From positions 1 through 59,179 of the forward strand of contig JAITDT010000024.1 of NCBI GenBank assembly GCA_031282425.1: a stretch of 59,179 nucleotides of DNA, written 5' to 3'. The stretch's first letter is position 1. Every line of letters starts with the position of its first letter. Shown here piece after piece: positions 23,610-56,375 of this stretch. A program made the translations under genes and the position numbers. The notes under the pieces are model-generated. The model ran no database searches and was not told the origin of the DNA. It worked only from the letters and a program-made list of their open reading frames with translations. The stretch comes from Holosporaceae bacterium. Its GTDB lineage: Bacteria > Pseudomonadota > Alphaproteobacteria > UBA3830.

Positions 23610-23672
23610 TCTATCAAATAACCGAAATATGCTGCATAATTAAATCTCTTGCAAATATTATTAGTGAGATAG

Positions 23673-24290: not shown

Positions 24291-24306
24291 GCTATAGGAA
24301 AAAATC

Positions 24307-25020: not shown

Positions 25021-25022
25021 TT

Positions 25023-27017: not shown

Positions 27018-27996
27018 CAGCGCTCAGGATACACATCTAGTAACAGGTGGAGCTGGGTTTATAGGATCCAATCTTGTGGATAGATTGTTGCAAGGGGGAT
27101 GTCGTGTTATTACATTTGACAATTTCTCCACAGGTAAGCGTTGTTTTTTAGAGCAAGCTTTAACAAATCAAAATTTTTCTCTGTTAGATGGCAATCTATC
27201 GGATTTAAACGCGCTTATTCAAACAATGAAAGAAACTCATATTGATATGGTTTGGCACATGGCCGCCAATGCTGATGTGCGCTTCGGCTTGAATCATCCG
27301 AGAAAGGATTTGGAACAAAATACCATCGCAACGCACAATGTTTTAGAAGCCATGCGCATTAATAATATAAAAAAAATAGCTTTTTCCTCTACCGGCTCTA
27401 TTTATGGCGAGCCTTCTGTGCATCCTACTCCGGAAAATACTCCTTTCCCTGTACAAACGTCGCTCTATGGAGCTTCTAAATTAGCTTGCGAAGCGTTAAT
27501 TCAGGCTTACTGCGAAGGATTCGGCTTTAGTGGATATATTTTTCGTTTCGTTTCTGTGTTGGGCGAACGGTATACTCATGGCCATGTATTTGATTTTTGT
27601 CGCAAATTAATTGATAATCCTCATGAACTACAAGTATTAGGCGATGGTCGTCAACGTAAGTCATATATGTATGTGCAAGATTGCCTAGATGCAATGCTAT
27701 TGGCCGTAGAAAAGTGCCAAGGCAAAGTGAATATTTTCAATCTTGGAGTAAATGATTACGTGGAGATAAATGATTCAATCAAAGTTATAACAAAACGCTT
27801 AGGAGTTAATCCGAAGGTAAAATATTCTGGCGGAGAACGCGGATGGATAGGGGATAATCCATTTATTTGGCTGGATACTTCTCGTATTCAAGCTATTGGG
27901 TGGCAGCCTAAAGTCAGCATCTTAGATGGAGTACTAAAAACTTTAGAATGGCTGTTGTCCAATCGATGGGTTCTTACGGAAAGAAGCGAGGAATAA
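26989..27996 (+). CDS. NAD-dependent sugar-nucleotide epimerase/dehydratase (extended SDR)
   Basis: VTGGAGFIGSNLVDRL Rossmann motif and YGASK catalytic Y-x-x-x-K. The start may be ATG 27007. Confidence 0.85.
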   Translation: MPKVIPMTFSSAQDTHLVTGGAGFIGSNLVDRLLQGGCRVITFDNFSTGKRCFLEQALTNQNFSLLDGNLSDLNALIQTMKETHIDMVWHMAANADVRFGLNHPRKDLEQNTIATHNVLEAMRINNIKKIAFSSTGSIYGEPSVHPTPENTPFPVQTSLYGASKLACEALIQAYCEGFGFSGYIFRFVSVLGERYTHGHVFDFCRKLIDNPHELQVLGDGRQRKSYMYVQDCLDAMLLAVEKCQGKVNIFNLGVNDYVEINDSIKVITKRLGVNPKVKYSGGERGWIGDNPFIWLDTSRIQAIGWQPKVSILDGVLKTLEWLLSNRWVLTERSEE

Positions 27997-28706
27997 TGAA
28001 TAAATGGCCTAAAAAACTGCCGCCTCTCACGGAAGAGCAGAAAAGAATCAGTAGTGATTTTATGAATAGACATTTGCATGCATTGCAAAACAAATGGTAT
28101 GGCTTTGTGGAAATTTTTAATCACAAATATCCAATTTATTCCCTCAAATTGCAGGGGAGGGAGGGGAGACTTCTCAGGACTTTGGAAATTGGAGCTGGTA
28201 TTGGTCAACATCTCAATTATGAAAATTATAGTCAGCAAGAATATTACTGTAATGAGTTATTGCCGGAACTGTGCATGGAAATAAAAAAGCGATATCCGAA
28301 GGTTAACGTTGTACCAGGCGATTGTCAAAAGCGTCTGCCGTATGAAGATGCGTATTTTGATAGAATTATAGCTATTCATGTTTTTGAGCACTTGCCTAAT
28401 CTTCCAGCCACTATACGCGAATCCAGACGACTGATAAAACCTACCGGAGTATTGTCTGTGATAATACCTTGTGAAGGCGGAATGATGACAAAAATAGCGC
28501 GTAATTTATCTGCCAAACCGCATTTCGAAAAATTATATAAGCAAAACTATGATTGGTTCATAAAATCTCAGCACATTAACATGCCGGACGAAATATTATA
28601 TGAACTAAAACAATGTTTCCAAGTGATTCACAGCATGTGGTTTCCGCTACTAGTCCCATCTGTGAACTTTAACCTTTTTATAGGGTTGACATTGAAGCCT
28701 AGATGA
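27996..28706 (+). CDS. class I SAM-dependent methyltransferase
   Basis: LEIGAGIGQHL (motif I) and FDRIIAIHVFEHL. Start placed at ATG 27996, which overlaps the upstream stop (TAATG). Confidence 0.75.
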   Translation: MNKWPKKLPPLTEEQKRISSDFMNRHLHALQNKWYGFVEIFNHKYPIYSLKLQGREGRLLRTLEIGAGIGQHLNYENYSQQEYYCNELLPELCMEIKKRYPKVNVVPGDCQKRLPYEDAYFDRIIAIHVFEHLPNLPATIRESRRLIKPTGVLSVIIPCEGGMMTKIARNLSAKPHFEKLYKQNYDWFIKSQHINMPDEILYELKQCFQVIHSMWFPLLVPSVNFNLFIGLTLKPR

Positions 28707-28713
28707 TTGGAGT

Positions 28714-29625
28714 TTGTATATGCTTTGCCATATTTGTAATTCAGATACCGAAGCTATTGGAACAAAAAAAGGTCAATACTGTGTTGTTGAGTTTGAGTTT
28801 AGAAAGTGTTTGCAATGTGGATTTATTTTCGTTGCTAATCCTCTAACAGATTATGCAACTTTATATAATGAAAATTATTATTGCGGCAAAGGAGCTGATC
28901 CAACGCTGGATTATATAGGAGAGTTGTATGATTCCGGTAAAACTATACGTCAGTTTGAGTGGTATGGCATATTCAGAGTTATAGCTTCGATTGTTGTAGG
29001 AGGGGGGGAGGGGCTGACTAGCAAAAGTTGGCTGGATATAGGTTGTGGGAATGGTGGATTGGTACGTTATTTGACTAATAGACATATAAAATGTTTAGGA
29101 GCAGAAGACGGGTGGATAGCGGATAAAGCAAGAGATGATTTTTCAATCCCTATCGTATCATTGGACAACATTCAGGGCAGGTACGATATAGTCACTGCAA
29201 TTGAAGTATTAGAACATATTCAATACCCAATGGACTTCTTGTTAAAAGTTAAAAATCTTTTAAATCCTGGTGGTATATTTTGGTATACGACTGGCAATTC
29301 CGCTCCTTTCCTAAAAGATATTCCCTCACGATGGGCTTATGTTGTTCCGGAAGTGCACATTAGCTACTTTAGCCCGAATTGCATGAAAGTTGCCTTTAAG
29401 AAAGCGGGATTAAAGCCTGTTCACTTTAATGGTCTCCCTTCAGGTATGGAGTACATTATTTTATTTAAGATACTAAAAACACTTGGCATGAAACGATTGC
29501 CAATTTATGATCGTTTTGTGGAAAAAATGTTACAAACGATCTGCTCTCCTTTAATCAGATGCATTGCTAATTTAGTTAACGCGAGGTATCGTATTTCCGA
29601 TATGCCATTCGGGATATACAAATGA
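28714..29625 (+). CDS. class I SAM-dependent methyltransferase with N-terminal Cys4 zinc-ribbon
   Basis: CHICNS...CLQCG followed by WLDIGCGNGGL and YDIVTAIEVLEHI. Confidence 0.75.
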   Translation: MYMLCHICNSDTEAIGTKKGQYCVVEFEFRKCLQCGFIFVANPLTDYATLYNENYYCGKGADPTLDYIGELYDSGKTIRQFEWYGIFRVIASIVVGGGEGLTSKSWLDIGCGNGGLVRYLTNRHIKCLGAEDGWIADKARDDFSIPIVSLDNIQGRYDIVTAIEVLEHIQYPMDFLLKVKNLLNPGGIFWYTTGNSAPFLKDIPSRWAYVVPEVHISYFSPNCMKVAFKKAGLKPVHFNGLPSGMEYIILFKILKTLGMKRLPIYDRFVEKMLQTICSPLIRCIANLVNARYRISDMPFGIYK

Positions 29626-30476
29626 GTTTTGCCAATAAGACTGTATTGATAACTGGAGCTACGGGCACATTAGGTAGGGCATTGAGTTTCGCATTTCGTA
29701 AATCTGATGCTAATCTAGTCGTGTTAGCTAAAAACGAAAGTCAATTAAAAATATTATACAATGAGCTTAACAAGTGTGCTGGCAATGGTTCTATAAATCA
29801 AATAGTTGCTGATCTTTCCAATCCTGATTTTCTAGATAAAACAAACACCAATATGTTCATCACAGATATACTAATCAATAATGCGGCCACTCAAAGTCCA
29901 ATAGGTCTGTTGGAAAGCAATAGTTGCTCTGCTTGGTTAGATATAGTTAACATTAACCTGGTAGCGCCGGTCTTTTTATGTCGTACAGCTATTCCGCGTA
30001 TGAAATCTAATAAATTCGGTCGCATTATTAACATATCCGGCGGAGGCGCGGCAGGGCCTAGAGCATTTTTTTCTGCCTATAGTTCAACTAAAGCGGCACT
30101 GGTACGTTTGACAGAAACATTGGCTTGTGAATTGCAAAATACTGGCGTTACTGTAAATGCAATTGCTCCAGGAGCCATGCTCAGCGCGATGACAAAGGAA
30201 GTATTAAACGCAGAAAATATAATTGAAAACGAAGAACTACAGCGTGCTCAATGGCTTTATTTAAATAAAGAAGATAATACTGCTGCTGAGGCAGTTGATT
30301 TATGTTTATGGTTAGCCTCAGACGCTAGCAATGGAATTACCGGTCGTTTAATTAGCGCAAAATGGGACAATTGGAAAGAATGGCCGAAGCATCTGGCAGA
30401 ATTACAAAATTCCGACCTTTATACATTACGTCGCATTACCGGCAGAGATCGCGGACAAACTTGGGGAGACAAATGA
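29622..30476 (+). CDS. short-chain dehydrogenase/reductase
   Basis: LITGATGTLGRAL, NNAA and YSSTK (Y-x-x-x-K). Confidence 0.85.
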   Translation: MSFANKTVLITGATGTLGRALSFAFRKSDANLVVLAKNESQLKILYNELNKCAGNGSINQIVADLSNPDFLDKTNTNMFITDILINNAATQSPIGLLESNSCSAWLDIVNINLVAPVFLCRTAIPRMKSNKFGRIINISGGGAAGPRAFFSAYSSTKAALVRLTETLACELQNTGVTVNAIAPGAMLSAMTKEVLNAENIIENEELQRAQWLYLNKEDNTAAEAVDLCLWLASDASNGITGRLISAKWDNWKEWPKHLAELQNSDLYTLRRITGRDRGQTWGDK

Positions 30477-31459
30477 ACTTTGGAATAATTGGCTGCGGGC
30501 TTATCGGTAGAAAAAGAGCCTCTAGCATAACTAATAGGAGCGGACTTAAATTAGTGGCTGCCGCTGATCTCGACCTCAGAAGAGCGGAAATGTTATGCGT
30601 CGAGTTTGGAGGTAGAGCGACATCCAATGCCAATGAAGTAATAGATTCAGAAGCGGAGGTAATAATCGTCTCCACTACCCATGATCAACTTGCCCCCATC
30701 GCCTTGATGGCTCTCAGAGCTGGGAAGCATGTTCTATTGGAAAAACCAGGTGCCAAGAGTGCAAAAGAACTCGAACCAGTGGCAACTGAAGCAGCAAAAC
30801 GTGGATTAATAGTAAAAGTTGGTTTTAATCATCGTTTTCATTCGGCAATATTGCAGGCGAAAGAGTTGGTCAAACAAGGAGCTATAGATCGCCTCATGTT
30901 CGTGCGTGGCCGTTACGGACACGGAGGGCGCGTGGGCTATGAAAAAGAATGGCGTTTTCGGAAAGAAATGTCCGGTGGCGGTGAATTATTGGATCAAGGG
31001 AGTCACTTAATAGATTTATCGCGATGGTTTCTTGGAGAATTTACGACGGTTTATGGAATATTGCCTCGCTACTATTGGCCCGGAGAAGTCGAGGATAATT
31101 GCTTTTTAACGCTACAAACTGATGATGGGAAAATTGCTCAGCTGCATGCTACGTGGACAGAATGGAAGAATACCTTCTGCCTTGAAATTTACGGACAGTC
31201 TGGGAAATTGCAAATCGATGGTCTTGGTGGAAGCTACGGCCCAGAGCAATTGAGTTTTTATAAAATGTTGCCACAAATGGGGCCGCCGCAGACCACAATT
31301 TGGCAATACCCGTTTCCAGATGCTTCATGGGATCGTGAAATGGAAGAGCTACTATGCGCTATTTCCGAAAAGCGTTCTCCGCTTAGCGATGTTAACGACG
31401 CTATGGAGAATTTGCGCTTGGTGGATAAGTTATATCGACAACAGGAGAAAGTATCATGA
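30473..31459 (+). CDS. Gfo/Idh/MocA-family sugar oxidoreductase
   Basis: MNFGIIGCGLIGRKRA Rossmann N-terminus and an EKP motif (LLEKPGA). ATG 30473 overlaps the SDR stop (ATGA). Confidence 0.8.
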   Translation: MNFGIIGCGLIGRKRASSITNRSGLKLVAAADLDLRRAEMLCVEFGGRATSNANEVIDSEAEVIIVSTTHDQLAPIALMALRAGKHVLLEKPGAKSAKELEPVATEAAKRGLIVKVGFNHRFHSAILQAKELVKQGAIDRLMFVRGRYGHGGRVGYEKEWRFRKEMSGGGELLDQGSHLIDLSRWFLGEFTTVYGILPRYYWPGEVEDNCFLTLQTDDGKIAQLHATWTEWKNTFCLEIYGQSGKLQIDGLGGSYGPEQLSFYKMLPQMGPPQTTIWQYPFPDASWDREMEELLCAISEKRSPLSDVNDAMENLRLVDKLYRQQEKVS

Positions 31460-32436
31460 TTATTGCTCGTAGTCCTTTGCGTATTACGTTAGGAGGAGGC
31501 GGAACTGACATGCCTTCCTACTACCATGATTACGATGGATTTTCGATTGCTGGAGCAATTGATAAATATGTGTATGTCACGATAATGCGACCATTTACGC
31601 CAGGAATCTATTTGAAATACTCGCAGCTTGAACATGTGGAACAGGTTGATCAGGTGCAGCATAAAATCATTCGCGAAGCTCTTTATATGCAGAATTTACG
31701 TACTCCCCAGATAGAAATAACCTCTTTGGCGGATATTCCTTCCGGAACAGGTCTTGGTTCTTCTGGCAGCTTTACCACTGCGTTACTGAAGGCTTTGTAT
31801 GCACATCGATGCAAGATGATTATGCCGCACGAACTTGCGGAATTAGCATGTCACATCGAGATAGATCGTCTGAGCGAACCCATTGGCAAGCAGGATCAAT
31901 ATATCGCTGCCTATGGTGGTCTACAATATTTTACCTTTCATAAGGCAGGTACAGTTTCTGCCGAACCGCTTAATATATCAATGCAAACAGTTTTCGATTT
32001 AGAGGATAAACTGCTTTTATTTTTTACTGGATTCTCCCGCAGCGCCGGAAGCGTTTTGAAAGATCAATATTTACGTACTATGCAGCATGACGACGAGATG
32101 CTGAACAGTTTGCATTATGTGAAAAAGTTGGCTTATCAATCTAAAGAAGCGTTAGAAGCAGGCGACCTGACAAAATTTGGCCAACTCATGCACGAACATT
32201 GGGAACATAAGCGAAAACGTTCCCACAATATGAGCAATTCCCAGATAGACGAATGGTATAAGCTTGCTATAGCCAATGGAGCGGTGGGAGGCAAGCTTGT
32301 GGGAGCTGGCGGCGGCGGTTTTTTGATGTTTCTTGTCGACGATGGCGTAAAACTGCGTCATACCATGAATAATATCGGTCTCGAAGAAGTCCGATTTCGT
32401 TTTGATTTTCATGGAACTAAGATATTAATTGGTTGA
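31456..32436 (+). CDS. hddA: GHMP kinase, D-glycero-D-manno-heptose 7-phosphate kinase-like
   Basis: MIIARSPLRITLGGGGTDMPSYY N-terminus and the GHMP motif PSGTGLGSSGSF. Confidence 0.8.
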   Translation: MIIARSPLRITLGGGGTDMPSYYHDYDGFSIAGAIDKYVYVTIMRPFTPGIYLKYSQLEHVEQVDQVQHKIIREALYMQNLRTPQIEITSLADIPSGTGLGSSGSFTTALLKALYAHRCKMIMPHELAELACHIEIDRLSEPIGKQDQYIAAYGGLQYFTFHKAGTVSAEPLNISMQTVFDLEDKLLLFFTGFSRSAGSVLKDQYLRTMQHDDEMLNSLHYVKKLAYQSKEALEAGDLTKFGQLMHEHWEHKRKRSHNMSNSQIDEWYKLAIANGAVGGKLVGAGGGGFLMFLVDDGVKLRHTMNNIGLEEVRFRFDFHGTKILIG

Positions 32437-32454
32437 TCAGACAGAGTTTGGTAA

Positions 32455-33192
32455 ATGATTGATAGAGGTGCAGAGCGCATGCTTCCAGTAGCAATGTTAG
32501 CAGGTGGACTGGCCAAGCGTATGAGACCGATCACTGAAAAAATTCCCAAAGCGTTACTGCCTGTTGCAGAAGAACCTTTTATATTTCATCAATTGCGCCT
32601 ATTGAAAAAACAAGGGATAACTAGGATTGTATTGTGTGTTGGCCATTTGGGCGAGCTAATCGAAGAACAAGTAGGCGACGGTTCAAAATTCGGCCTGGAA
32701 ATAGCTTATTCCTTCGATGGTCCCAAATTGCTTGGAACGGCCGGCGCTCTAAAGAAAGCTTTGCCTTTATTGGGGGATGTTTTTTTTGTGATGTACGGAG
32801 ATTCTTATCTTACTTGCAATTACAGCGAAGTATATAGACACTATAAAAAATGCGAACGACCTGCTCTCATAGCGATCTATTGTAATCAAAATTTATATGA
32901 TATCAGTAATATCGTTTTCGAAAATGAAGAGATTGTCAGTTACGATAAGAAGGATTTTATTCCTCAGATGCATTATATAGATTATGGGCTTAGTATTCTA
33001 TGTGGACATCTGCTGAACAATTTAAAATTAAATGAATTTTATGATTTAGCAGATGTTTACATGGATTTGGTTAAAAAGAAAAAAGTAGCTGGATTTGTTG
33101 CTCGCGAGAGATTCTACGAAATTGGTTCGCCTGAAGGGCTAAACGAGCTGTCCGAGTTATGTAGTATTCTACCCTCTCCATTGAGCGCTTAA
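32455..33192 (+). CDS. hddC: sugar-1-phosphate nucleotidyltransferase, heptose-1-phosphate guanylyltransferase-like
   Basis: AMLAGGLAKRMRPITEKIPKALLPV is the G-x-G-x-R-L nucleotidyltransferase loop; 245 aa. Confidence 0.75.
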   Translation: MIDRGAERMLPVAMLAGGLAKRMRPITEKIPKALLPVAEEPFIFHQLRLLKKQGITRIVLCVGHLGELIEEQVGDGSKFGLEIAYSFDGPKLLGTAGALKKALPLLGDVFFVMYGDSYLTCNYSEVYRHYKKCERPALIAIYCNQNLYDISNIVFENEEIVSYDKKDFIPQMHYIDYGLSILCGHLLNNLKLNEFYDLADVYMDLVKKKKVAGFVARERFYEIGSPEGLNELSELCSILPSPLSA

Positions 33193-33199
33193 TCTACTC

Positions 33200-34195
33200 T
33201 TAAACCTCTGGTTTTTTGAATACCCCGATACAACGAATGCCGAATGGATACGATAATACCTTGCCAAGCATTAATTCAATTTTAAGTATCATACGTACAA
33301 TAAATCCACTGGTCAGGGCTATTAGAGCTATGGATAAACGAGAATTACAAATGGATTGTTGTTTTGCTGCCGTAATATGCCAACGAGCTCTCGTCTTTTT
33401 CACGCACAAAAAAAATGGATATAGAAAAAATCCCAGATGAGAAAAATAAACTCGCTCTAGTCCGGATTCGTTTAAAAGTTTCAAAATTTGCGCGTTACTG
33501 TAACGCCTGTAATGGTGTAATTGAGCATCATAGGTGTCGAACAGTTTCTCTCCGTATGGGACTTCAAAGATAAAAACCCCTCCAGGCTTTAAAATCCGGT
33601 GTATTTCTTGCACAGCGCGACTGTGATCTTTTATATGCTCAAGAACGTTTAACGCTAAAACCGCGTCGTAGCTTTTGTCCGGTAAAGGGCAATCTATTAG
33701 ATCAAAACACAACAACGGAGTCGGAATATTTTCTTTTTTTAATTCTTTTGATAATTTACGCAGCGTTTTATTAATGATATCAGCCCCTACAATTTGTGCA
33801 TTAGGGAATAACCGTCGCATGCGACGCAATAAAACGCCACTAGAGCAGCCTATTTCTATAAGTCTCCCCCCCCCCCCTTGCTTAAAATTTGGACAATACT
33901 TCTTTATATTTGCAATTCCAGTAATAAAAGAAGCTTCATCGATGGGATGTCGACCGTTACTTATTTCTTCATGAAAATCCGTTAAATTGTCGTCCCATCC
34001 TGTTGGCGCATTAGGCATAGAATACGCTAAGACGCCTTCAAAAGACGGCTTCCCAACAAACTCTTTCCCATTCCATATTACATCTTCATGTTTGGTAGGA
34101 TGTGGAAATATTTGCTTGCTAGGTGAACACATCTTCATCTTCCACGACCTTATGCTATGCCTCCGACAGGCAATAATACTATATAATACAGGCAT
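33200..34195 (-). CDS. class I SAM-dependent methyltransferase containing an in-frame G12 tract
   Basis: GGGGRLIEIGCSSGVLL (motif I) and YDAVLALNVLEHI. The four Gly codons are a single G12 run. Start codon uncertain. Confidence 0.75.
   Translation of the reverse strand: MPVLYSIIACRRHSIRSWKMKMCSPSKQIFPHPTKHEDVIWNGKEFVGKPSFEGVLAYSMPNAPTGWDDNLTDFHEEISNGRHPIDEASFITGIANIKKYCPNFKQGGGGRLIEIGCSSGVLLRRMRRLFPNAQIVGADIINKTLRKLSKELKKENIPTPLLCFDLIDCPLPDKSYDAVLALNVLEHIKDHSRAVQEIHRILKPGGVFIFEVPYGEKLFDTYDAQLHHYRRYSNAQILKLLNESGLERVYFSHLGFFLYPFFLCVKKTRARWHITAAKQQSICNSRLSIALIALTSGFIVRMILKIELMLGKVLSYPFGIRCIGVFKKPEV
33866..33877. repeat. C12 homopolymer (G12 on the coding minus strand)
   Basis: Counted directly. 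It encodes GGGG immediately before SAM-binding motif I. Confidence 0.95.
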
Positions 34196-34446: not shown

Positions 34447-37071
34447 ATGGAAGATAGCAGTTTATTCTACAGCTCTGTCAAAGATGCAACTCCGGCAATG
34501 TCGCAGTATCTGACATTTAAGTCGCAGTATCCGGGATGTCTGTTACTATTTCGCATGGGGGATTTCTTTGAACTTTTTTTCGAAGACGCTAAGATTGCTT
34601 CCTCTATATTAAACATTGCCCTTACGCATCGAGGGAAACACATGAATGAAGATGTTCCCATGTGCGGAATTCCGGTCGTAACTTTAGACGCTTATGTGGG
34701 ACGACTCGTGAAATATGGGCAAAAAGTGGCCATCTGTGATCAGGTCGAAGATCCGCAAGAGGCGAAAAAGCGCGGCTATAAAGCTATCGTAAGGCGAGAA
34801 ATCACGAGAATCTTAACCGCCGGCACTATAATTGAAGAAAATTTATTAAACTCAAACAGAAATAATTTTCTGGTATCGATTGTGCCTGATATTTGTCGGA
34901 AAACAGAAAAAATCAAGACGGTGAGTTTTGCCGCCATAGATATATCAACCGGTGAGTTCTTCGTAAATACATGTTTGGCAGATGAATTTCCATCGTTTTT
35001 GAAAATGTACAATCCACGAGAAATATTGATTTCATCGAGTATAGAAAGAAGTGATTTTGCAAAATCTTTTTCTTCCGTCTGCGACGCCTCCATTACGGCG
35101 TTACCAGAGTCAAAATTCAATCCCATCGTCGAAAAAGAAAGGCTGGAAAGATATTTCAAGGTCAGTACATTGGATAGCTTCGGCATAAAATTAAGCAATG
35201 AATTGTCCTCTTGTGGCGCTGTTTTGGAATACTTACTCATAACGCAGCGCGATAATGTTTCCAACTTGCCTATCCCTAAAAGAACGTCATTTTGTAATTA
35301 TCTGATCATTGATCCCGCTACGAGCAAAAGTCTAGAGATAACGACCTCTAATCGCGGCGAGCATGAATACAGTCTATTGGGTGTCATTGACAAGACAAAA
35401 ACCGCGTTTGGATCCAGAGCTCTTGCCGCTAGGGTATCAATGCCTCTGATAAATAAAGATCTGTTAGAAAAACGCCTAAATTGCGTCGAATTCTTCATCA
35501 AAAATGAAAAACTATTGAAGTTGATTCGCGATACCATTTCGGGATGTCCAGATTTTGAAAGGGCTATTAATCGCATAAAATTTAACAAATTCTCTCCCCG
35601 AGATCTTGGAGATATTCGAGAATCTTTGCGTATGGTTTGCTCCATAAAAACGCTTTTCAAAAATGTCAATATGCCCAGCGAGGGAGAATATTATGTTGAA
35701 AAATTAAAAGACTTCTCAGAATTATATGATTTGCTGGCAACGGCCTTGATAGAAAAATTGCCGGCATCTAATAACATGCATGGAATAATTTCAGATGGAT
35801 ACTCTAGAGAATTGGATGAGCTAAAGTATTTAAAAAATCACAGTGAGGAGTTAATTCTTGATTTACAGCACAAATACATCGATGAAACCGGAGTTGGCGC
35901 TCTAAAAATCAAAAATAATGCCATTATAGGCTGGTATGTGGAAGTTCCTTTATCTCAAAGAGGTAAGATGAACGATCGGTTCATACATCGTCAAACGCTT
36001 ATAAATGCCATGAGATATACGACCCGAGAACTAATTTCTGTACAGGGCAAATTGATGAACATTCTGGACGAATGGGAGCAGTTGGAGAAGGAGCTATACG
36101 AAAAAATTGTGGATAAAATGCTAAAATTTCAAGAAGAAATTTTTCATGCCATAAAAGTACTGTCTCTCCTCGACGTTTATACGAATCTGGCTTATGTGGC
36201 CCTGGAAAGAAATTATGTTCGTCCTGAAATTTCCGCCGATCCGATTTTAAAAATAGAAAATGGTCGACATCCTATGTTGGATTTGCACGGGCAAGATTTT
36301 ACAAGCAATAATTGTGATCTCGATGATTCCAAAATTTGTCTACTCACGGGACCTAACATGGCCGGAAAGAGCACTTACTTACGCCAAAATGCGTTGATTA
36401 TGATTCTAGCTCAAATCGGAAGTTATGTCCCCGCTTCTGTGGCTATTATCGGAATCGCCGACAGGTTGTTTTCTCGCATCGGGGCGTCTGACGACATAGC
36501 TCGCGGACGTTCCACTTTTATGGTAGAGATGATAGAAACGGCGACTATTTTAAATCAAGCGACCGCGAAATCATTTGTTATATTGGACGAGGTTGGACGC
36601 GGAACATCCACCTATGATGGGCTCTCCATCGCCTGGGCTGCCATAGAAAATCTTTATAAAGTCAACAAATGTCGCGTTTTATTTGCGACTCACTATCGGG
36701 AGTTAGCAGCTCTCCAAAACACGCTAAAGAATATAACGTGTAAAACATTGAAAGTTCAAGAATGGAACGGAGACGTAATATTTTACCATAAAATTATAGA
36801 TGGAATTGCGGATAAATCCTATGGCATTCATGTGGCCAGTATCGCTGGAGTTCCAAAAACCGTAATAAAGAGAGCGATGGAACTCTTGAAAAATTTCGAA
36901 TCACAAAGTGGCAAAAGTTCCGACGAATTCTTGATGGAAGCATCAGATCAGATGGAATTTTTCTACGCGCAAAATTCCAAACTAAAACAAAAACTTGACG
37001 CTATCGATCCCAATAACATCTCTCCCAAGCATGCGCTGGAGATACTGTATGAGTTAAAAGAGTTAGTTTAG
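34447..37071 (+). CDS. mutS: DNA mismatch repair protein MutS
   Basis: TPAMSQYLTFKSQYPGCLLLFRMGDFFELF N-terminus, Walker A GPNMAGKSTYLRQ, and DEVGRGTSTYDG. Confidence 0.97.
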   Translation: MEDSSLFYSSVKDATPAMSQYLTFKSQYPGCLLLFRMGDFFELFFEDAKIASSILNIALTHRGKHMNEDVPMCGIPVVTLDAYVGRLVKYGQKVAICDQVEDPQEAKKRGYKAIVRREITRILTAGTIIEENLLNSNRNNFLVSIVPDICRKTEKIKTVSFAAIDISTGEFFVNTCLADEFPSFLKMYNPREILISSSIERSDFAKSFSSVCDASITALPESKFNPIVEKERLERYFKVSTLDSFGIKLSNELSSCGAVLEYLLITQRDNVSNLPIPKRTSFCNYLIIDPATSKSLEITTSNRGEHEYSLLGVIDKTKTAFGSRALAARVSMPLINKDLLEKRLNCVEFFIKNEKLLKLIRDTISGCPDFERAINRIKFNKFSPRDLGDIRESLRMVCSIKTLFKNVNMPSEGEYYVEKLKDFSELYDLLATALIEKLPASNNMHGIISDGYSRELDELKYLKNHSEELILDLQHKYIDETGVGALKIKNNAIIGWYVEVPLSQRGKMNDRFIHRQTLINAMRYTTRELISVQGKLMNILDEWEQLEKELYEKIVDKMLKFQEEIFHAIKVLSLLDVYTNLAYVALERNYVRPEISADPILKIENGRHPMLDLHGQDFTSNNCDLDDSKICLLTGPNMAGKSTYLRQNALIMILAQIGSYVPASVAIIGIADRLFSRIGASDDIARGRSTFMVEMIETATILNQATAKSFVILDEVGRGTSTYDGLSIAWAAIENLYKVNKCRVLFATHYRELAALQNTLKNITCKTLKVQEWNGDVIFYHKIIDGIADKSYGIHVASIAGVPKTVIKRAMELLKNFESQSGKSSDEFLMEASDQMEFFYAQNSKLKQKLDAIDPNNISPKHALEILYELKELV

Positions 37072-38431: not shown

Positions 38432-38593
38432 TCGCAGTCATTAGAATCGTAGAATAACTGCATCCTGATTTGAAAATCATTAACTCTCTGTCAATATTTT
38501 TCTGAAATAATAGGAGGATGATTTTACATTGCAATATAAGGATTTGGTTTAATGCAATTTTCGATAGTAATTAATAACTTGATTGCAATAGGC

Positions 38594-38605
38594 GGGGGGG
38601 GGGGG
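38594..38605. repeat. G12 homopolymer
   Basis: Counted directly. It lies inside a short ATG-initiated leader (ATG 38552) upstream of the Flp-like gene. Confidence 0.95.
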
Positions 38606-38838
38606 TAAACCTTCTAGAAGAGAGGCGTCTTTCATGTTCTGATTATTTGTCAATTTATCAAAATAGTTTCAATTATTACTTATTTCGCAGTCTCCAAAGT
38701 TTTTTTGATTTTTTCTCAAAAGTAATTTTCTTTTGGCATTGCTTTCAAATTTATTCTCCGATGTTTTCCTCTTCTTCAAAAAGTATTTCTTTTGCGACAA
38801 CATCTGGAAAAAAATCTTTTTTCAATGAGGTATCTCTG

Positions 38839-39837
38839 ATGTCACCGGAGAAAAATCACCATTCCCGCCGTTTGTTGACAAAAAAGGGGTCTAGAGGGGC
38901 GATATCGGAGTATATTCTTCTGGCAAGCCTGGTTGTGATGGCAGCCATTTATGGACTAGGATCTGTGGGCTCATCGATTCAAAAACAATTTCAGACGCTG
39001 CTCGATGATTTCGGAAAATCTGCGTCTTCTTCTATAGAATCATTGTCGCCGGAAAAACAGAAACAGATGTACGAGACGATGCGAACGGCCGTAATGAATG
39101 CAGGAATAGAGAATGAAGAAGATGCAGATCAAATTGCTTCGGTCGCTGCGAATACAGCTACAGAATCCTATTTGGAAGCTATAAATTCAGAATATGCTAA
39201 ATCTCTAAGTCCCGAAGAAGCCGAAATTTATGCTACAAGAATTGCCGCTTGGGAGGCTTATAAATCTGTGTATGAGCAAAATGGAACTGCCGAACAGAGA
39301 GCAATGGCGCACGCCTCAGCGAGAGCTGCATATAAAGCGATGATAGAAACCATGATTGGTAGAGAATCGACGGAGGCGGAATTAGTAGGCAACATAGCCT
39401 ATGCTTCTGCGCTGGAGACGGCATCCACAGTTCTAGCAGCGCTGAAAGACTCTCAGAGGAACACAACGCTGGATGTAAAGGCTGCTGCTGCCACCGTAGC
39501 GGAGCAGTTTACAAGAGAGGCAAATATTATGTATGAGGAAATAAATAAAGATAGAATGGGCTCGTCACCTTGGATTATGACTTATTCTTCAGGGCCATTT
39601 TCATCACTGTATAGTTTACTTCAGTCCATAGTCGCAGACGCAAACATGGACTGGGAAAAAATGCCACCCAATCCTGAACTACTGAGAAAAATAGACCGGG
39701 CGGCGGCAGCATCGGTGCTCTATGAAAATAGCTATTATGCATATGATGTAGCATATGATGCTTACGGCTTCCGAAGTGAGCTAGCCAAATGGGCTGAACA
39801 GGTGCGGAACGGCACGCTAATAAGCGATGAACGCTAG
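38839..39837 (+). CDS. large protein with Flp-type (type IVc) prepilin-like N-terminus; minimal CDS
   Basis: ATG 38839 is preceded by GAGG. MSPEKNHHSRRLLTKKGSRG|AISEYILLASLVVMAAIYGLG resembles the Flp leader-G|xxxxEY-hydrophobic helix. A ~310-aa Ala-rich, apparently helical domain follows. The same frame is open upstream to 38578, so the ORF-track start of 38647 is possible. Confidence 0.6.
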   Translation: MSPEKNHHSRRLLTKKGSRGAISEYILLASLVVMAAIYGLGSVGSSIQKQFQTLLDDFGKSASSSIESLSPEKQKQMYETMRTAVMNAGIENEEDADQIASVAANTATESYLEAINSEYAKSLSPEEAEIYATRIAAWEAYKSVYEQNGTAEQRAMAHASARAAYKAMIETMIGRESTEAELVGNIAYASALETASTVLAALKDSQRNTTLDVKAAAATVAEQFTREANIMYEEINKDRMGSSPWIMTYSSGPFSSLYSLLQSIVADANMDWEKMPPNPELLRKIDRAAAASVLYENSYYAYDVAYDAYGFRSELAKWAEQVRNGTLISDER

Positions 39838-41367: not shown

Positions 41368-41395
41368 CACCCACCACCACCCCACCCCACCCCCC
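41368..41395. repeat. C-rich block CACCCACCACCACCCCACCCCACCCCCC (G-runs on the minus strand)
   Basis: Read directly. The minus strand is GGGGGGTGGGGTGGGGTGGTGGTGGGTG, i.e. four G-runs of at least 3 with short loops. Confidence 0.9.
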
Positions 41396-41490: not shown

Positions 41491-42435
41491 ATGGGGGGGG
41501 GGGGCAATCACCTCTGGCAGAGGCGGTTCTGGTGCTTAGATTGTCAAGATAATGGCAAGAATCTCGGCAAAATTGCTTTTTTAAGAAAAACCGGTCTCGG
41601 AAATCTTGACAAATTTTTCTCTTTTGAAAAAGCCTGCAATCATTTCAAAAGGCCTCTTTTTCGTTCCATAAAGTTCTTTTTTCGGCATGGAAATTTCCAG
41701 CTGCAGAAAAAATCCTCCGGCGCGACGCTTGTTGAAAATGCGCTCGTCGTTGCCTTGGTGATTATTGCCGCTGTCGGTGGTTTGAGTTACATCGGACTAG
41801 CCGTACAGGATCGTCTTGACATATTGGCGGGAGTTACAAATTCTGGAAACGAGGCTAATCAGAAAGCAAAAACGGCATGGGACACATTCTTTGAAGGATT
41901 GCAAAGTATTTTAGATGACGGGGACGGAATAGAGAATCTTCTAAAAGAAGGGAAAGATCTAAAAAAAATACTGGGAGAGAAATTTGATGTATTATTTGAG
42001 GACTTGGCTAAAAATGTAGATCTTGATCAGGCCTGGCCAGAAGAATGGACGCGAATCTCATGTTATGAATCCGCAATCCATGTGAAATATGCCAAGGAAC
42101 CACCAAATGCGCCTCAGACACATCCATCTGAATTTCCTCCCAGCAACGAATATGATGAATACATGACACAAATAGAAGAAGCATATAATAACAACGAGAC
42201 TGCCTTTGATAAAGTAGCAGCTCTTGTAATGATAAAACTTGCTATTGAAGCAGAACCGGATGATAGTCCTTTATTTTACGAATATCACACCACTGATAGT
42301 AATGGAAATGAGTATTATATTGGCCGAGAGTTCAGCATTCTCGGATCATATTTGGATTGTTACATCTACAAAGCATATCATCCAGAGTGGGAGATATCTG
42401 ATCCAGAGCCGTATCCACCAACAACAGTTAAGTAA
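41491..42435 (+). CDS. large protein with Flp/TadE-type prepilin-like segment; start codon fused to a G12 tract
   Basis: ...QLQKKSSG|ATLVENALVVALVIIAAVGGLSYIG has Gly, then Glu at +5, then a hydrophobic helix. An acidic ~235-aa domain follows. The only in-frame ATG/GTG/TTG upstream of this segment is ATG 41491. Confidence 0.55.
   Translation: MGGGGNHLWQRRFWCLDCQDNGKNLGKIAFLRKTGLGNLDKFFSFEKACNHFKRPLFRSIKFFFRHGNFQLQKKSSGATLVENALVVALVIIAAVGGLSYIGLAVQDRLDILAGVTNSGNEANQKAKTAWDTFFEGLQSILDDGDGIENLLKEGKDLKKILGEKFDVLFEDLAKNVDLDQAWPEEWTRISCYESAIHVKYAKEPPNAPQTHPSEFPPSNEYDEYMTQIEEAYNNNETAFDKVAALVMIKLAIEAEPDDSPLFYEYHTTDSNGNEYYIGREFSILGSYLDCYIYKAYHPEWEISDPEPYPPTTVK
41493..41504. repeat. G12 homopolymer beginning at the G of ATG 41491
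   Basis: Counted directly: ATGGGGGGGGGGGGCAAT. Confidence 0.95.
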
Positions 42436-46434: not shown

Positions 46435-48495
46435 ATGGTAGAAAGCACGCAGCATGTATTAGATAGAGTCCGTTCTCCTCGAGTACAAATCACCTATGAC
46501 GTGGAGATAGGGAATGCTATAGTTATGAAGGAGTTACCCTTTGTTATAGGAGCGCTAATCGATTTATCAGGCATGCCGGTGGATCCGTTGCCTCCCATTA
46601 AACTTAGAAAATTTGTGGAAGTGGATAGGGACAATCTTCCGGACTTCATGATATCAATCAATCCACGCTTAGCTATACAGGTAAAAGACACGCTGGAAGA
46701 TGGATCAGAGGATCTGAATGCAGAGTTGTTTTTCAAGCATATGGATGACTTCGGTCCCATTAGTATTGCTCGGCAGGTGCCCAAATTAAATAAAATATAT
46801 TCTTCACGCATAAAATTAAACGATTTGGTGGTAAAGCTGGAAGGGAATGATCCTCTTCAGCAGTGCGTAAAAGATATCGTTGCAGATGCCGGATTAAAAG
46901 CCGCTTTAAAAGCCCAAATTGACGCTGTTTTAAAGGCTAACAAACAGTCAATTACGGCGGACTTCGCCACTGCCCAAACGCCGAATGGCGTCGCCCCTCC
47001 GCCGTCAGGAGGCGGAGCTACCGCTGCCGGCGCGCCTCCTGCCGCTGACGCTCCAAAAATGAATCGAGAAATCCTGAAAGAAATGTTTGTGGGCGGTAAA
47101 CTTGCGCGAGATCCATCGGCGGAAGTATATGCGTGCAGCATACTACTGGAGCTACTTCTTAAAATTGAGGAAACGAAGGTAACTGTGATGAAAAATCCTC
47201 TTGCCTTTGTGGAAAAGGCGGTGGCAGACATCGACGCTATACTGAGCGCTCAAATTAACGAGATCCTACATAATCAGGCGTTTCAGGAACTCGAGGGTAC
47301 ATGGCGGGCGTTGCACTATTTAATAATGAATACAGAAACCAGCACTCAATTAAAAATAAGAGTGATGAACGCGACGAAAAAAGATTTGCTGGACGATCTG
47401 GAAAACGCCGTCGAGTTTGATCAAAGTCAGCTATTTAAAAAAGTATATGAAGAAGAGTACGGTACTTTTGGTGGCCATCCTTATTCCTGCCTCATTGGCG
47501 GATACGAATTTACGCGTCATCCGCAAGATATATTACTACTGGAGAAAATTTCCAATGTTGCTGCTGCTGCGCACGCTCCATTTATCGCCGCGGCTCATCC
47601 GCGCATGTTCGATATGGAAAGTTTCACGCATCTTGCCGGACCGCGTGATATATCAAAAATCTTTGAAAGTACGGAAATGATCAAGTGGAGGTCTTTCCGG
47701 GATAGCGAAGATTCCAGATACGCAGCGCTGGTGCTGCCGCGGGTACTTATGAGATTGCCCTATGGGCCGGATACATTACCCGTCGATGGTATGAGTTATG
47801 TGGAATCCATAGATGGCAATGATAATTCGCAATTTTGCTGGGGAAATGCAGCCTTTGTTTTGGCTCAACGAATTGGTTATGCGGTTTCGCTGTATAAATG
47901 GCCCGCCGCCATTCGCGGCGTTGAGGGTGGTGGACTGGTGGAGGAACTGCCGGCTTACACATTTAAAACCACCGACGGCGATATCGCGCTAAAATGTCCA
48001 ACAGAAATAGCCATTACCGATCGTCGGGAAAAAGAATTGACAGATATGGGGTTTTTGGCAATTTGCCATAGTAAAGGAACTGACTTCGCCGCCTTTTTCG
48101 GCGGGCAAACTACCCAGAAACCCAAGGTCTATAATACAGATGATGCCAATGCGAACGCTGCACTGAGCGCACGGCTACCGTACTTGCTAGCAGCGTCCAG
48201 ATTTGCTCATTACATAAAGGCGATCATGCGCGATAAAATTGGGGCTTTTCTGACGAAGGACAATGTCTCTTCCTATCTTAATAATTGGATAGCCAATTAT
48301 GTTCTATTAAACGATTCTGCCAGCCAGGATCTCAAGGCTAAATTTCCGCTACGGGAAGCTCGAATAGACGTATTCGATATTCCGGGTAAGCCGGGATCCT
48401 ATAAGGCGACTATATTTTTGAGGCCGCACTTCCAATTGGAAGAGCTGACGGCGTCCATAAGATTGGTGGCCAGTTTGCCGCCACCGGCCAAGTAA
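46435..48495 (+). CDS. tssBC: type VI secretion contractile sheath, TssB (VipA) and TssC (VipB) fused in one polypeptide
   Basis: aa 1-~170 carry TssB blocks: RVQITYDVE, ELPFVIGALIDLSG, RKFVEVDRDNLPDF, ELFFKHMDDFGPISIARQVPKL. Then a P/A/G linker GVAPPPSGGGATAAGAPPAADAP. Then TssC blocks: ILHNQAFQELEGTWRALHYL, YGTFGGHPYSCLIGGYEF, AAAAHAPFIAAAHP, LVLPRVLMRLPYG, LRPHFQLEELTASIRLV. Confidence 0.85.
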   Translation: MVESTQHVLDRVRSPRVQITYDVEIGNAIVMKELPFVIGALIDLSGMPVDPLPPIKLRKFVEVDRDNLPDFMISINPRLAIQVKDTLEDGSEDLNAELFFKHMDDFGPISIARQVPKLNKIYSSRIKLNDLVVKLEGNDPLQQCVKDIVADAGLKAALKAQIDAVLKANKQSITADFATAQTPNGVAPPPSGGGATAAGAPPAADAPKMNREILKEMFVGGKLARDPSAEVYACSILLELLLKIEETKVTVMKNPLAFVEKAVADIDAILSAQINEILHNQAFQELEGTWRALHYLIMNTETSTQLKIRVMNATKKDLLDDLENAVEFDQSQLFKKVYEEEYGTFGGHPYSCLIGGYEFTRHPQDILLLEKISNVAAAAHAPFIAAAHPRMFDMESFTHLAGPRDISKIFESTEMIKWRSFRDSEDSRYAALVLPRVLMRLPYGPDTLPVDGMSYVESIDGNDNSQFCWGNAAFVLAQRIGYAVSLYKWPAAIRGVEGGGLVEELPAYTFKTTDGDIALKCPTEIAITDRREKELTDMGFLAICHSKGTDFAAFFGGQTTQKPKVYNTDDANANAALSARLPYLLAASRFAHYIKAIMRDKIGAFLTKDNVSSYLNNWIANYVLLNDSASQDLKAKFPLREARIDVFDIPGKPGSYKATIFLRPHFQLEELTASIRLVASLPPPAK

Positions 48496-48547: not shown

Positions 48548-49138
48548 ATGAGCAGCAATAATAGAGGATTTGAAATGTTTAGCCAAATTCAAAGGCCTGA
48601 CATGCTTGGCAAAAGCGATGAAAGCCTTAATGCACCGAGTGGAGCCTCAAAAACTCCCCAATGGGTTATTGGAACGGATGATGATACCGGTATTTTTGAT
48701 AGCGATATGGACGGCGATTTTGCCAAAATGGCTGTGGTCCTCTGGATAGTATTCGGAGGCGCTCGATTAGCAACATACGACTCCTCAGGACAGCAATCCG
48801 GAGACGGAAAAATAGTCAATCGCGACGTTGTCGTATGTATGAAATTTGGAGACTACGGTCCGCCTCTTCAGCAATGGATGTTTTCTGGGAAAAAAATTAC
48901 CACTATTACCATAAAAAGGGTAATTAGCGTAAACGGCACGCTCGTGGTGATCCAGGAATTAACCTACGGAACGTGCGTCATAAAGACCTACGAGCAAAAT
49001 GGCGACATTATTACGTTTACATTTACTTTTGTCACCTATACCGACATGAGTCTAGCCTACGATCATGACGGAACGCTAGTCGGACGTGTTGGAATGTCAT
49101 ATGACGCTGCTAAAATTACGGTAGCCGCTGTATCTTAA
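48548..49138 (+). CDS. hcp: divergent Hcp (TssD)-like tube protein with N-terminal extension
   Basis: GGAGG lies 9 nt upstream. The C-terminal ~130 aa (VVVCMKFGDYGPPLQQWMFSGKKITTITIKRV...LTYGTCVIKTYEQNGD..ITFTFTFVTYTDMSLAYDHDGTLVG) follow the Hcp pattern: K-x-x-D-x-x-SP-x-L-like block, then G-x-x-(I/L) and alternating beta-strands. It sits directly downstream of the sheath gene. Confidence 0.55.
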   Translation: MSSNNRGFEMFSQIQRPDMLGKSDESLNAPSGASKTPQWVIGTDDDTGIFDSDMDGDFAKMAVVLWIVFGGARLATYDSSGQQSGDGKIVNRDVVVCMKFGDYGPPLQQWMFSGKKITTITIKRVISVNGTLVVIQELTYGTCVIKTYEQNGDIITFTFTFVTYTDMSLAYDHDGTLVGRVGMSYDAAKITVAAVS

Positions 49139-49595: not shown

Positions 49596-49623
49596 TTGAC
49601 AATTTTTTTTTTTTTGATACATT
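49596..49623 (+). promoter_or_regulatory. sigma70-type promoter candidate whose spacer is a T13 tract
   Basis: TTGACA (49596-49601), a 16-nt spacer A-T13-GA (T13 = 49603-49615), then TACATT (49618-49623), 35 nt upstream of ATG 49659. Confidence 0.55.
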
Positions 49624-49658
49624 GAAAATAGTTTTTATCATCAAATATGGAGGTTAAT

Positions 49659-50186
49659 ATGAAAAAAACTATTGGAACCGTTAGAGCAATTGTGTTCGGC
49701 AGTATGTTGACAGCGGCGGTTAGCTGCGAGGGAATGCAGATAGAGAATGTTGCAGGCTTGATTTATGATGGAAATGAGCATGACCTAACCCCTCTTTGGA
49801 AAGATTACTTGTCGCAACATTTTGATGCTACACACCGAGCTTATCTTATGCATAATGGTAAGGATTGCTCCCTGTTGTCTCATGCGGCATGTGCTGGAAA
49901 ACCACTGCTGCTCGCAACTATGGGACATCTCGATACTCTTACGCTAGAAGATTTGGGAAATTTATTTTCTGCACTTAAACCAACGGCGTATGCTTCTCAT
50001 GATCAATATACAGCATTGGAGCAAATAGTGCAGGCTATGATTGGGACTTTTGGTATAGATCGAGTACGTCAATATCGTGATGCTCGAGGGCGCTCTTTTG
50101 ACCAAATCGTTGCGGAAGGAACGGCTGGTGATTTTAATGCGCAAAGGAGCATATTTCCTAAGTTGCGTGAGTGGGGTCTTTATTAA
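49659..50186 (+). CDS. hypothetical exported protein (possible lipoprotein; weakly ankyrin-like)
   Basis: GGAGG lies 6 nt upstream of ATG 49659. MKKTIGTVRAIVFGSMLTAAVSC is signal-like. NGKDCSLLSHAACAGKPLLLATMG loosely resembles an ankyrin repeat. Confidence 0.5.
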   Translation: MKKTIGTVRAIVFGSMLTAAVSCEGMQIENVAGLIYDGNEHDLTPLWKDYLSQHFDATHRAYLMHNGKDCSLLSHAACAGKPLLLATMGHLDTLTLEDLGNLFSALKPTAYASHDQYTALEQIVQAMIGTFGIDRVRQYRDARGRSFDQIVAEGTAGDFNAQRSIFPKLREWGLY

Positions 50187-51273: not shown

Positions 51274-51287
51274 GGGGGGGGGGGGGG
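51274..51287. repeat. G14 homopolymer beginning at the G of an ATG (51272)
   Basis: Counted directly: GATGGGGGGGGGGGGGGACT. All three plus-strand frames stop within 20 codons. Confidence 0.95.
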
Positions 51288-56212: not shown

Positions 56213-56375
56213 TTTATATATCTTTTTATTTCATCATATTTATCAGTAAACAATATAAAATATTTTATCTTTTTTTAAATACGTTTTATGTATAAAACGA
56301 TATCAAAATCTCTTCACAAAGAATTACGGATCCAGTATGGATATGCTATAATCCCCGGAAGATTAGAGTGTGGCG

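Follow-up and report, generated by a model that had tools for sequence, protein, structure and literature searches.

In the 59,179-nucleotide (nt) stretch of Holosporaceae DNA analysed here (contig JAITDT010000024.1 of assembly GCA_031282425.1, the whole of which we call the window), the gene for a large protein with an Flp-like N-terminus carries an unbroken run of twelve guanines (G12; 38594-38605, plus strand) within its 5' leader. Reading from the sequence, we hold with moderate confidence that this run is a hypermutable translational contingency switch, standing at present in the OFF position for the long form of the protein, and for the family of related genes as a whole we hold the same view more firmly. 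Its foundations are the geometry of start codon, tract and reading frame, the recurrence of that geometry in both ON and OFF states among paralogues and homologues, and differences in repeat length between assemblies of the same strain.

At the target gene, a Shine-Dalgarno (SD)-like AAGGA (38538-38542) is followed after a spacer of 9 nt by the upstream start codon ATG 38552 (38538-38554 for the whole element, plus strand like the rest of the gene). In the assembled G12 state the leader opened by this codon (38552-38608) reads MQFSIVINNLIAIGGGGG and meets the stop codon TAA at 38606-38608, directly after the tract; a homologous locus, L083, has TAG at the equivalent place directly after a G12 of its own. 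The frame of the large protein is itself open from 38578 through the tract, and the 87 stop-free codons that run from there to ATG 38839 (38578-38838) would form the leader of the long form. ATG 38839, with GAGG 8 nt before it (38827-38830; element 38827-38841), is a possible tract-independent start with a 20-amino-acid (aa) Flp-style leader, and from it the open reading frame (ORF) encodes 332 aa (38839-39837, the short form), beginning MSPEKNHHSRRLLTKKGSRG and continuing, beyond the KKGSRG that precedes a putative cleavage site, with AISEYILLASLVVMAAIYGLG. Immediately after the tract lies a block, TAAACCTTCTAGAAGAGAGGCG (38606-38627), that is conserved at the DNA level with L083 (TAGACCTTCTAGGAGAGAG-CG). 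Every position that the initial annotation of the window gave is confirmed, and its proposal that one extra G, or two fewer, would join the leader to the long ORF is borne out by recomputed products: ATG 38552 is fused to the ORF at G10, G13 or G16 (427-429 aa; the long form, 38552-39837, at G13 or G10), yields 18 aa at G12 and yields 29-30 aa at G11 or G14. With a start codon before the tract and the bulk of the ORF after it, a change of a single G toggles between full-length and truncated products, as expected of a contingency locus.

The same annotation had called a stop-free run of about 87 codons unusual, and dinucleotide shuffles agree, placing the stretch from tract to ATG 38839 at P ~0.018 and that from tract to the Flp motif at P ~0.007-0.011; the two other frames of the leader hold 3-5 stops each, against none in the frame of the ORF. 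Three annotation pipelines chose three different starts for the gene, giving products of 396, 332 and 321 aa, and its start must therefore be considered ambiguous. No Rfam family matched the 5' region and its folding z-score of +0.8 marks its RNA structure as not unusual, so a structured RNA leader or riboswitch was dropped as an explanation.

A tract of this length is far above what base composition would produce and, given that homopolymers become prone to slippage at about 8 nt or more, long enough to slip. Across the window, G/C runs of 4-7 nt occur as often as expected, runs of 8-11 nt are absent, and runs of 12-14 nt number five against an expectation of ~5e-4. One of the five belongs to a second cassette of the same design (41491-42435, plus strand), recognised from its sequence and from the homologues P0013, P0014, L085 and L086. 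Here the G of the start codon ATG 41491 itself opens a G12 run (41493-41504), followed by an open leader of 71 codons, the basic sequence KKSSG directly before ATLVENALVVALVIIAAVGG, and an ORF of 314 aa, all in frame and thus ON. Between its tract and the hydrophobic segment there is no other in-frame ATG, GTG or TTG. This paralogue resembles the target over the N-terminal 47 aa only (34% identity, E=4e-6), with a different C-terminal body, and AGAGGCG follows its tract as it follows that of the target.

Beyond the window, an indexed homologue search returned the target alone and an exhaustive HMMER scan of 1.84 billion representatives gave four distant homologues (P0007-P0010, 32-36% identity), making the protein, by sequence, a near-orphan. 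Its layout of start, tract, leader and motif nevertheless recurs. L005, from another Holosporaceae metagenome-assembled genome (MAG), contains two loci that share a ~97%-identical block comprising ~90 nt of upstream sequence, GAGGG, ATG, 24 codons (MFRYYKLIKTAVVRLSSVSACKTN), the G tract and ~17 nt beyond it, past which the sequences diverge; at the first locus (G13) the leader is in frame with an ORF of 374 aa, a register that the second locus (AAATGT-G9) does not keep. In L082, whose ATG-GCA-CAA-G9 is in frame, a single further canonical start in frame precedes the motif, a TTG a few codons upstream of it. In L083, AAGGAG is followed after 8 nt by ATT, G12 and TAGACCTTCTAGGAGAGAG-CG, with the ORF frame open through the tract. 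Among cassettes of the paralogue type, P0014 starts M-GGGGGG, the gene call of P0013 begins just past the tract position, and L085 (GTG+G9) loses the frame twice, first at the tract and then at an A5 run (A6 in the window). L086 carries GGAG, 8 nt, ATG, 12 codons and then CAG GGT GGT GGT GGG GGC, a homopolymer interrupted at third codon positions only, so that the recoded run keeps Gly5 in frame. SD-like sequences (GAGGG or GGAG) stand 6-8 nt before the leader ATG in L005 and L086. Members are thus found both in frame (window 41491, L005 locus 1, L082, L083 if its ATT initiates, P0014 and the recoded L086) and out of frame (the target, L005 locus 2 and L085). Between tract and motif, not one of seven loci has a stop in the frame of the ORF and the other frames hold 0-6, mostly 2-6 (Fisher combined P ~2e-4, over loci that are not fully independent). 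A metagenome collection searched with the family alignment, and also with the DNA motif that follows the tract, gave no match, not even the window, as the collection does not contain these contigs, and exact-protein look-ups for P0012, P0013 and a methyltransferase of the window discussed below did not find their contigs.

These loci have further peculiarities of their own. Just before the Flp motif, paralogue-type genes contain a run of A residues (A6 in the window, 41684-41720; A7 in L084, about 40-90; A5 in L085, about 370-400), and in the window paralogue an out-of-frame ATG (MEISSCRKNPPARRLL...) overlaps it. A GC-rich palindromic repeat in L005 (...HPGGGRSPTKDPCDFHASSPSGSFASLKDDG...; 12700-12830 and 19420-19512), reminiscent of Rickettsia palindromic elements, lies in frame in the leader of the 374-aa ORF and also upstream of the second locus. 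In L083, the closest homologue of the target, the N-terminal motif is partly duplicated in tandem within the open leader (LKNSSRGATVERR... at 211-261, then LKNSSRGATVEHVLLV... at 334-384). The gene body of P0011, on L086 (965-1813), goes on in another frame (a second call of 283 aa, with the conserved SEAAYKSAW...LARW part), which is a frameshift, an assembly error or the mark of a pseudogene. The sequence FEKACNHFKRPLF is identical in the leaders of the window paralogue ORF and P0014; a zinc finger suggested by CLDC...ACNH in paralogue-type leaders was discarded, the cysteines not being conserved in P0013 and P0014.

An independent Logan assembly (SRR14710905) made from the same strain is identical to the window in its flanks outside repeats, and comparison of the two (as consensus sequences, not read counts) bears directly on the stability of the repeats. 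At the target tract, Logan contig L087 breaks off after the flank and 14 Gs, making the tract at least G14 against the G12 of the window, and contig L001 starts at 38607. The tract at 938-951, which is C14 in the window, reads C13-T-CCC in the Logan assembly with flanks otherwise identical, and a CCCAC/ACCCC pentanucleotide repeat (41370-41393) in the intergenic region between the divergent secB and ORF 41491 has one unit fewer in L001, although ~2.78 kb of flanking sequence is identical between the two. The fourth repeat, the 14-nt tract at 51274-51287, is the same in both; since a Logan contig runs through it intact, homopolymers alone are not the cause of contig breaks. Three differing repeats beside one that agrees are supportive of tract instability, though not conclusive.

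In the mechanism that we favour, the tract would serve a gene family whose members join a Flp/TadE-like (class III signal-like) N-terminal segment to a large variable body. Translation would start at an SD-equipped codon upstream of or abutting the tract (ATG 38552 in the target), and the ribosome would read the Gs as glycines before passing through a poorly constrained, stop-free leader into the Flp-like segment and a helical body. A gain of one G or a loss of two by replication slippage, to G13 or G10, would produce a precursor of 427-428 aa (ON), and in the assembled G12 state the leader would end at TAA 38606 after 18 codons with the long form OFF. RNA-polymerase slippage on G12 could leave that OFF state leaky, and in the target copy ATG 38839 may add a short form that is independent of the tract. 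Once made, the protein would insert its hydrophobic segment into the inner membrane with the N-terminus inside, the leader may be cut at G20/A21 (the slash here and below marking the putative cleavage site) by a prepilin-type peptidase, and the helical body would be exposed in the envelope or along a pilus-like fibre, where switching would generate stochastic surface variation.

The protein that this switch would control resembles a Flp-type prepilin at its N-terminus, as had been proposed at the outset, in features that the family alignment brings out. The Flp-like module (38881-38991, plus strand) consists of the basic KKGSRG, the putative cleavage site G20/A21, the E24-Y25 pair, a hydrophobic helix and GLGSVGSSIQKQF; in the alignment E24, G39, G44, S46 and I47 are invariant, a basic stretch ending in G precedes the hydrophobic helix, and a conserved ..IYGLG..G.SI...F continuation follows, as in Flp pilins. 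Profile searches, which the initial annotation had recommended, do not extend the resemblance to membership of a known family. The target has no match to Flp_Fap (PF04964; cut-off 32.2 bits) even at E<=1, the window paralogue reaches 9.8 bits (E=0.89), and the best family members, two of five, reach E=3.4e-4, below the cut-off. Neither window protein matches TadE (PF07811; cut-off 22.9 bits), and the 374-aa member in L005, RG/SVLIEFAICVPIL, falls just short of it (20.7 bits, E=4.7e-4). Nor does the target match N_methyl (PF07963): the +1 residue is Ala or Leu, which does not fit the N-methylation motif of type IVa pilins and type II secretion system pseudopilins (G/F or M-T-L-I-E). Where the Flp processing motif, G/XXXXEY, has Glu at +5 and Tyr at +6, the conserved Glu stands at +4 in the target (G/AISEY) and P0007 (G/ATVEH), and at +5 without a Tyr in P0008, P0009, P0010 and the window paralogue. 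The label 'Flp pilus assembly pilin Flp' is given by a JGI pipeline to four relatives (P0009, P0011, P0013 and P0014) and to P0012, which clusters with P0010, but this is an annotation and not a test.

In size, the target departs from the small pilins altogether, being 332 aa from ATG 38839 and 427-428 aa in the long form, 4-6 times a Flp pilin, whose precursor measures ~50-80 aa; the homologues range over 197-519 aa, some of them partial gene calls. To take 50-80 aa as the norm for such an N-terminus, as was initially done, is to pass over the TadE/F/G pseudopilins, which are larger, and the target family matches none of these either. Beyond the module lies an Ala-rich body of ~255 aa (residues about 70-325; 39046-39813, plus strand), which AlphaFold2 predicts to be all-helical and which has, by Foldseek and PDB profile comparisons, no known counterpart in fold or in sequence beyond the family. 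The single-sequence model was too poor for use (predicted local distance difference test, pLDDT, of 47.7), and with a five-sequence alignment the helical family model of the body is predicted confidently (body pLDDT ~80-86, overall pLDDT 70, predicted template modelling score 0.69). Foldseek found no relative of the alignment-based model in the PDB (best E 0.19, to de novo helical repeats), and a PDB sequence profile search returned nothing. No significant match for the target was found in Pfam, NCBIfam, PADLOC or PHROGs, and weak Pfam matches (DUF3818, HrpE, TED), all below cut-off, were disregarded.

Besides the incomplete independence of the seven loci, several points weigh against a translational switch. 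ATG 38839 could bypass the tract and give the short form at any tract length, and its arrangement of GAGG, 8 nt and ATG beside the motif is found at none of the other six loci compared. No SD is recognisable before ATG 41491, the leader of L083 starts with ATT and is in frame only if that codon initiates, and in-frame TTG codons lie near the motif in L082 and L083. The 20 nt that follow the tract show conservation between the target and L083, yet the two genes read them in different frames, which suggests that this block is constrained, at least in part, as DNA and not as protein; third-position bias in the leader, between the window paralogue and L086, is not significant ([7,11,13]), so that purifying selection on the leader at the protein level is not claimed here. 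Illumina homopolymer error could partly explain the differences between assemblies at the target tract and at 938-951, and to our knowledge a leader of 45-135 aa on a prepilin is without precedent. Part of this evidence would be accommodated by a switch acting on transcription or through the 5' untranslated region, in which ATG 38839 is the sole real start and the length of the tract sets the level of transcription or the stability of the mRNA; promoters with tracts in or near them are familiar from Bordetella fim, Neisseria porA/opc and Helicobacter sabA. ATG 38839 is a good initiation site, a sigma-70-like match (TTGTCA-18-AATTAT, 38647-38676) lies ~42 nt downstream of G12, the post-tract block is conserved as DNA across different frames, and the tract at 938-951, upstream of an ORF with stops between, indicates that promoter-type tracts may exist in the genome. 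Promoter-like matches around the target are, however, no more frequent than in shuffled sequence (14 against 10 +/- 3.3), and a model in which the tract sits between -35 and -10 was dropped because no acceptable pair of hexamers flanks it. Such a switch would also leave unexplained the stop-free leaders at seven loci, the SD and start codon just before the tracts, the paralogue-type genes without a canonical start after the tract, the third-position recoding in L086 and the inclusion, in the conserved cassette of L005, of ~90 nt upstream of the pre-tract SD-ATG. We consider it improbable. Less probable again, in our judgement, is that the switch is decaying or bypassed, with ATG 38839 rendering the target constitutive, or the copy an inactive pseudogene, and tract and leader surviving as relics. 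The presence of an SD and ATG beside the motif in this copy only, the absence of the gene from the closest relative (L002), the additional frameshifts in L085 and L086 and the near-orphan status of the protein all fit such a history, but a relic leader of 87 codons should gather stops (P ~0.01-0.02), the tract is long and perfect, SD, ATG, leader and body ORF are intact, and the alignment yields a confident helical model. That the tract is an artefact, poly-G from two-colour chemistry or a chimeric join, we regard as most improbable: the Logan contigs do break at the target tract, yet tracts occupy homologous positions in independently assembled data from four sources (an NCBI/JGI MAG, Logan, ENA and other JGI samples) and in homologues only ~35% identical, one of them recoded as Gly codons, and both flanks are unique and collinear with the gene. 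For the slipped-strand switch proposed in the initial annotation, then, recurrence in ON and OFF states, the recoding of L086, the seven stop-free leaders and the length differences between assemblies all speak in favour; for the target itself the support is partial, as it alone keeps an SD and ATG (38839) beside the motif, which is the alternative start that the annotation itself had offered.

A rival of a different kind concerns the protein and leaves the switch untouched. The Flp-like segment could be a signal-anchor, and the product a bitopic protein of the inner membrane, with its N-terminal extension in the cytoplasm and its helical domain in the periplasm, never cleaved by a prepilin peptidase or built into a fibre; we consider this a serious possibility, if a doubtful one. 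Leaders of 45-135 aa are unlike those of any known prepilin, the paralogue-type leader is conserved in sequence (FEKACNHFKRPLF), Flp_Fap and TadE scores are below threshold, the Glu of the target is at +4, and a Pfam search of ~50 ORFs of the window found no tad/cpa genes (TadV/CpaA, CpaF/TadA, TadB/C, RcpA/CpaC). Set against this are the invariant Glu, the [KR]-x-x-G/A context and the GLG..G.SI...F continuation, which fit the Flp design beyond a generic transmembrane helix, the JGI naming of four relatives and P0012, and the setting of the gene. The window encodes a secretin (Secretin and Secretin_N_2; 16372-18006) followed by two type IV pilin-like genes extending to 19275 (MKFSNTDKG/FSLIEVAIAVVV and ...ERG/SILLEVAIAIAV), of which ORF 18003-18638 matches N_methyl with E=1.5e-6; ATPase and platform genes are not adjacent. 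Because of this secretin and these N-methyl-type pilins, class III processing machinery is probably present and a prepilin peptidase is implied somewhere in the genome. The boldest reading of the family, which we think rather unlikely as a whole, is that a Flp-type pilin gene has been rebuilt as a modular contingency cassette: the native short-leader start would have been lost, expression would proceed from an upstream SD-start-poly-G module, prepilin peptidase would remove the 45-135-aa leader, and the cassette would have been recombined onto unrelated large bodies, giving phase-variable surface proteins of a 'giant Flp' kind, which would form a fibre or decorate one with no canonical tad locus. 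In all four paralogue-type DNA copies available, ATA (Ile) stands at the position where a short Flp leader would start, and its conservation offers a speculative hint that a native start was lost and expression passed to the upstream phase-variable one.

Turning to the remaining long tracts of the window, a G12 on the minus strand (33866-33877) lies in frame, encoding the GGGG just before motif I, in an ORF for an S-adenosylmethionine (SAM)-dependent methyltransferase (34195-33200; identified from sequence and Pfam) at the end of a glycan-synthesis cluster (22602-34195). The product is 331 aa at G12 and 112-118 aa at G10, G11, G13 or G14, and the gene is likely, from its sequence, to be a second phase-variable gene of the Campylobacter style. 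A signal-peptide ORF (854-327, 175 aa) has the tract at 938-951 (C14, minus strand) 84 nt before its ATG, with stops between, and this tract may be a variable one of the promoter type. The G14 at 51274-51287 (plus strand) falls between the 3' end of ORF 51730-51314 and an IS630-like transposase remnant (...AELNPIEYFWSCLKRKIR..., minus strand), with no obvious gene start nearby. As context for the target, these tracts point to a wider set of contingency tracts in the genome.

The nearest genomes found are Holosporaceae MAGs, and both P0010 and a MutS cluster-mate carry a Holosporaceae name at NCBI; the bin prefixes of the nearest MAGs (Hm464, Kf353 and Ncb351) denote lower-termite gut samples (PMC11707648). 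On one side of the target lies the gene for an amino-acid permease and on the other that for a stand-alone 5'-3' exonuclease, with secB next. The closest relative, L002, has these permease and exonuclease genes ~100 nt apart without the target gene between them, marking it as lineage-specific. An intact mutS (34447-37071) is also present, as is a single ORF of 686 aa (46435-48495) that fuses the type VI secretion system (T6SS) sheath subunits VipA (TssB) and VipB (TssC); the ORFs after this fusion (48548-49138 and 49647-50186) have no Pfam match, and a T13 run (49603-49615) lies just upstream of the second. Near the right end of the window is a transposase gene of the PD-(D/E)XK nuclease family (56370-57275; PF12784, E=2e-44).

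By analogy, the proposed mechanism belongs with the classical poly-G contingency switches typified by Neisseria pilC, and across the genome its flavour resembles that of Campylobacter. In pilC and other 5'-coding poly-G contingency genes of Neisseria and Haemophilus, a G tract in the leader-coding part switches between a full-length product and a short peptide on gain or loss of one G. In the target, too, homopolymeric G falls where the 5' leader of a pilus- or surface-associated gene is encoded, and its genome, like theirs, contains paralogues in different ON/OFF states alongside an intact mutS. It differs in that the pilC tract lies in an ordinary Sec signal-peptide region and that of the target in an extension of 45-135 aa that precedes a Flp-type segment, in an unrelated protein family. 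Campylobacter is not known to possess MutS/MutL-type mismatch repair; the window genome encodes MutS, and its Flp-like cassette family has no Campylobacter counterpart. The two are alike in combining an AT-rich genome with a discrete set of long G/C tracts, intragenic and intergenic, at genes for surface components and glycan modification, the methyltransferase with its in-frame G12 at the end of the glycan cluster being the Campylobacter-like case here. Accounts of poly-G contingency genes in general (PMC5084427, PMC2831843), of the Campylobacter jejuni poly-G 'phasome' (PMC8355987) and of a tract-containing glycan-modification gene (PMC3068675) supply the background to these comparisons. Homopolymer-mediated variation of surface-protein genes in the obligate intracellular Chlamydia (PMC4514472) offers a precedent for slippage in host-restricted bacteria, in a different phylum and with gene families and tract positions that differ from those of the target.

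On the side of the protein, the nearest parallels are the Flp/Fap pilins of Tad/Cpa pili (PF04964; Aggregatibacter Flp1, Caulobacter PilA), which share a basic leader ending in G, a small +1 residue, an invariant Glu, a hydrophobic helix and ..LG..(I/L)...F, with the E-Y pair shared by the target as well. The target departs from them in being 332 aa and not 50-80, in its Glu at +4, in scoring below the threshold of the profile hidden Markov model, in not heading a tad locus, in its large helical C-terminal body and, probably, in a very long leader. TadE/TadF/TadG (PF07811, PF13400) are larger proteins with a Flp-type processed N-terminus, and the L005 member G/SVLIEFAICVPIL is near the TadE threshold, but the target does not match TadE, its body is all-helical, and genes of its family are scattered among housekeeping genes and not gathered in a tad operon. 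What is new is, in the first place, the lineage, Holosporaceae being without reported phase variation: a 2025 review of the Holosporales describes a near-universal T6SS and does not mention pili, phase variation or homopolymers (PMC11909080), and searches for literature on phase-variable Flp pilins and on the sample accessions found none. Also new, as judged from sequence, is a protein family in which a Flp-like N-terminus is joined to large, unrelated helical bodies, and the siting of the switch appears to be new too, in a lengthened leader ahead of a segment resembling a class III signal, on a cassette apparently shared among bodies.

One practical consequence is that MAG annotations of such genes are unreliable, since three pipelines gave three starts and contigs break at the tracts. 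The biological consequences concern a group, the Holosporales, that lives in obligate association with protists and other eukaryotes and whose interaction with its hosts is largely unknown. If the proposed reading is correct, the family would represent both a new protein family and a new site for a slipped-strand switch. The contingency set of the window (two Flp-like genes, a glycan methyltransferase and the promoter region of a secreted protein) would then endow these bacteria with stochastic surface variation like that of mucosal pathogens, and would be a pointer to fluctuating selection on them in the termite gut by hosts, phages or predators.

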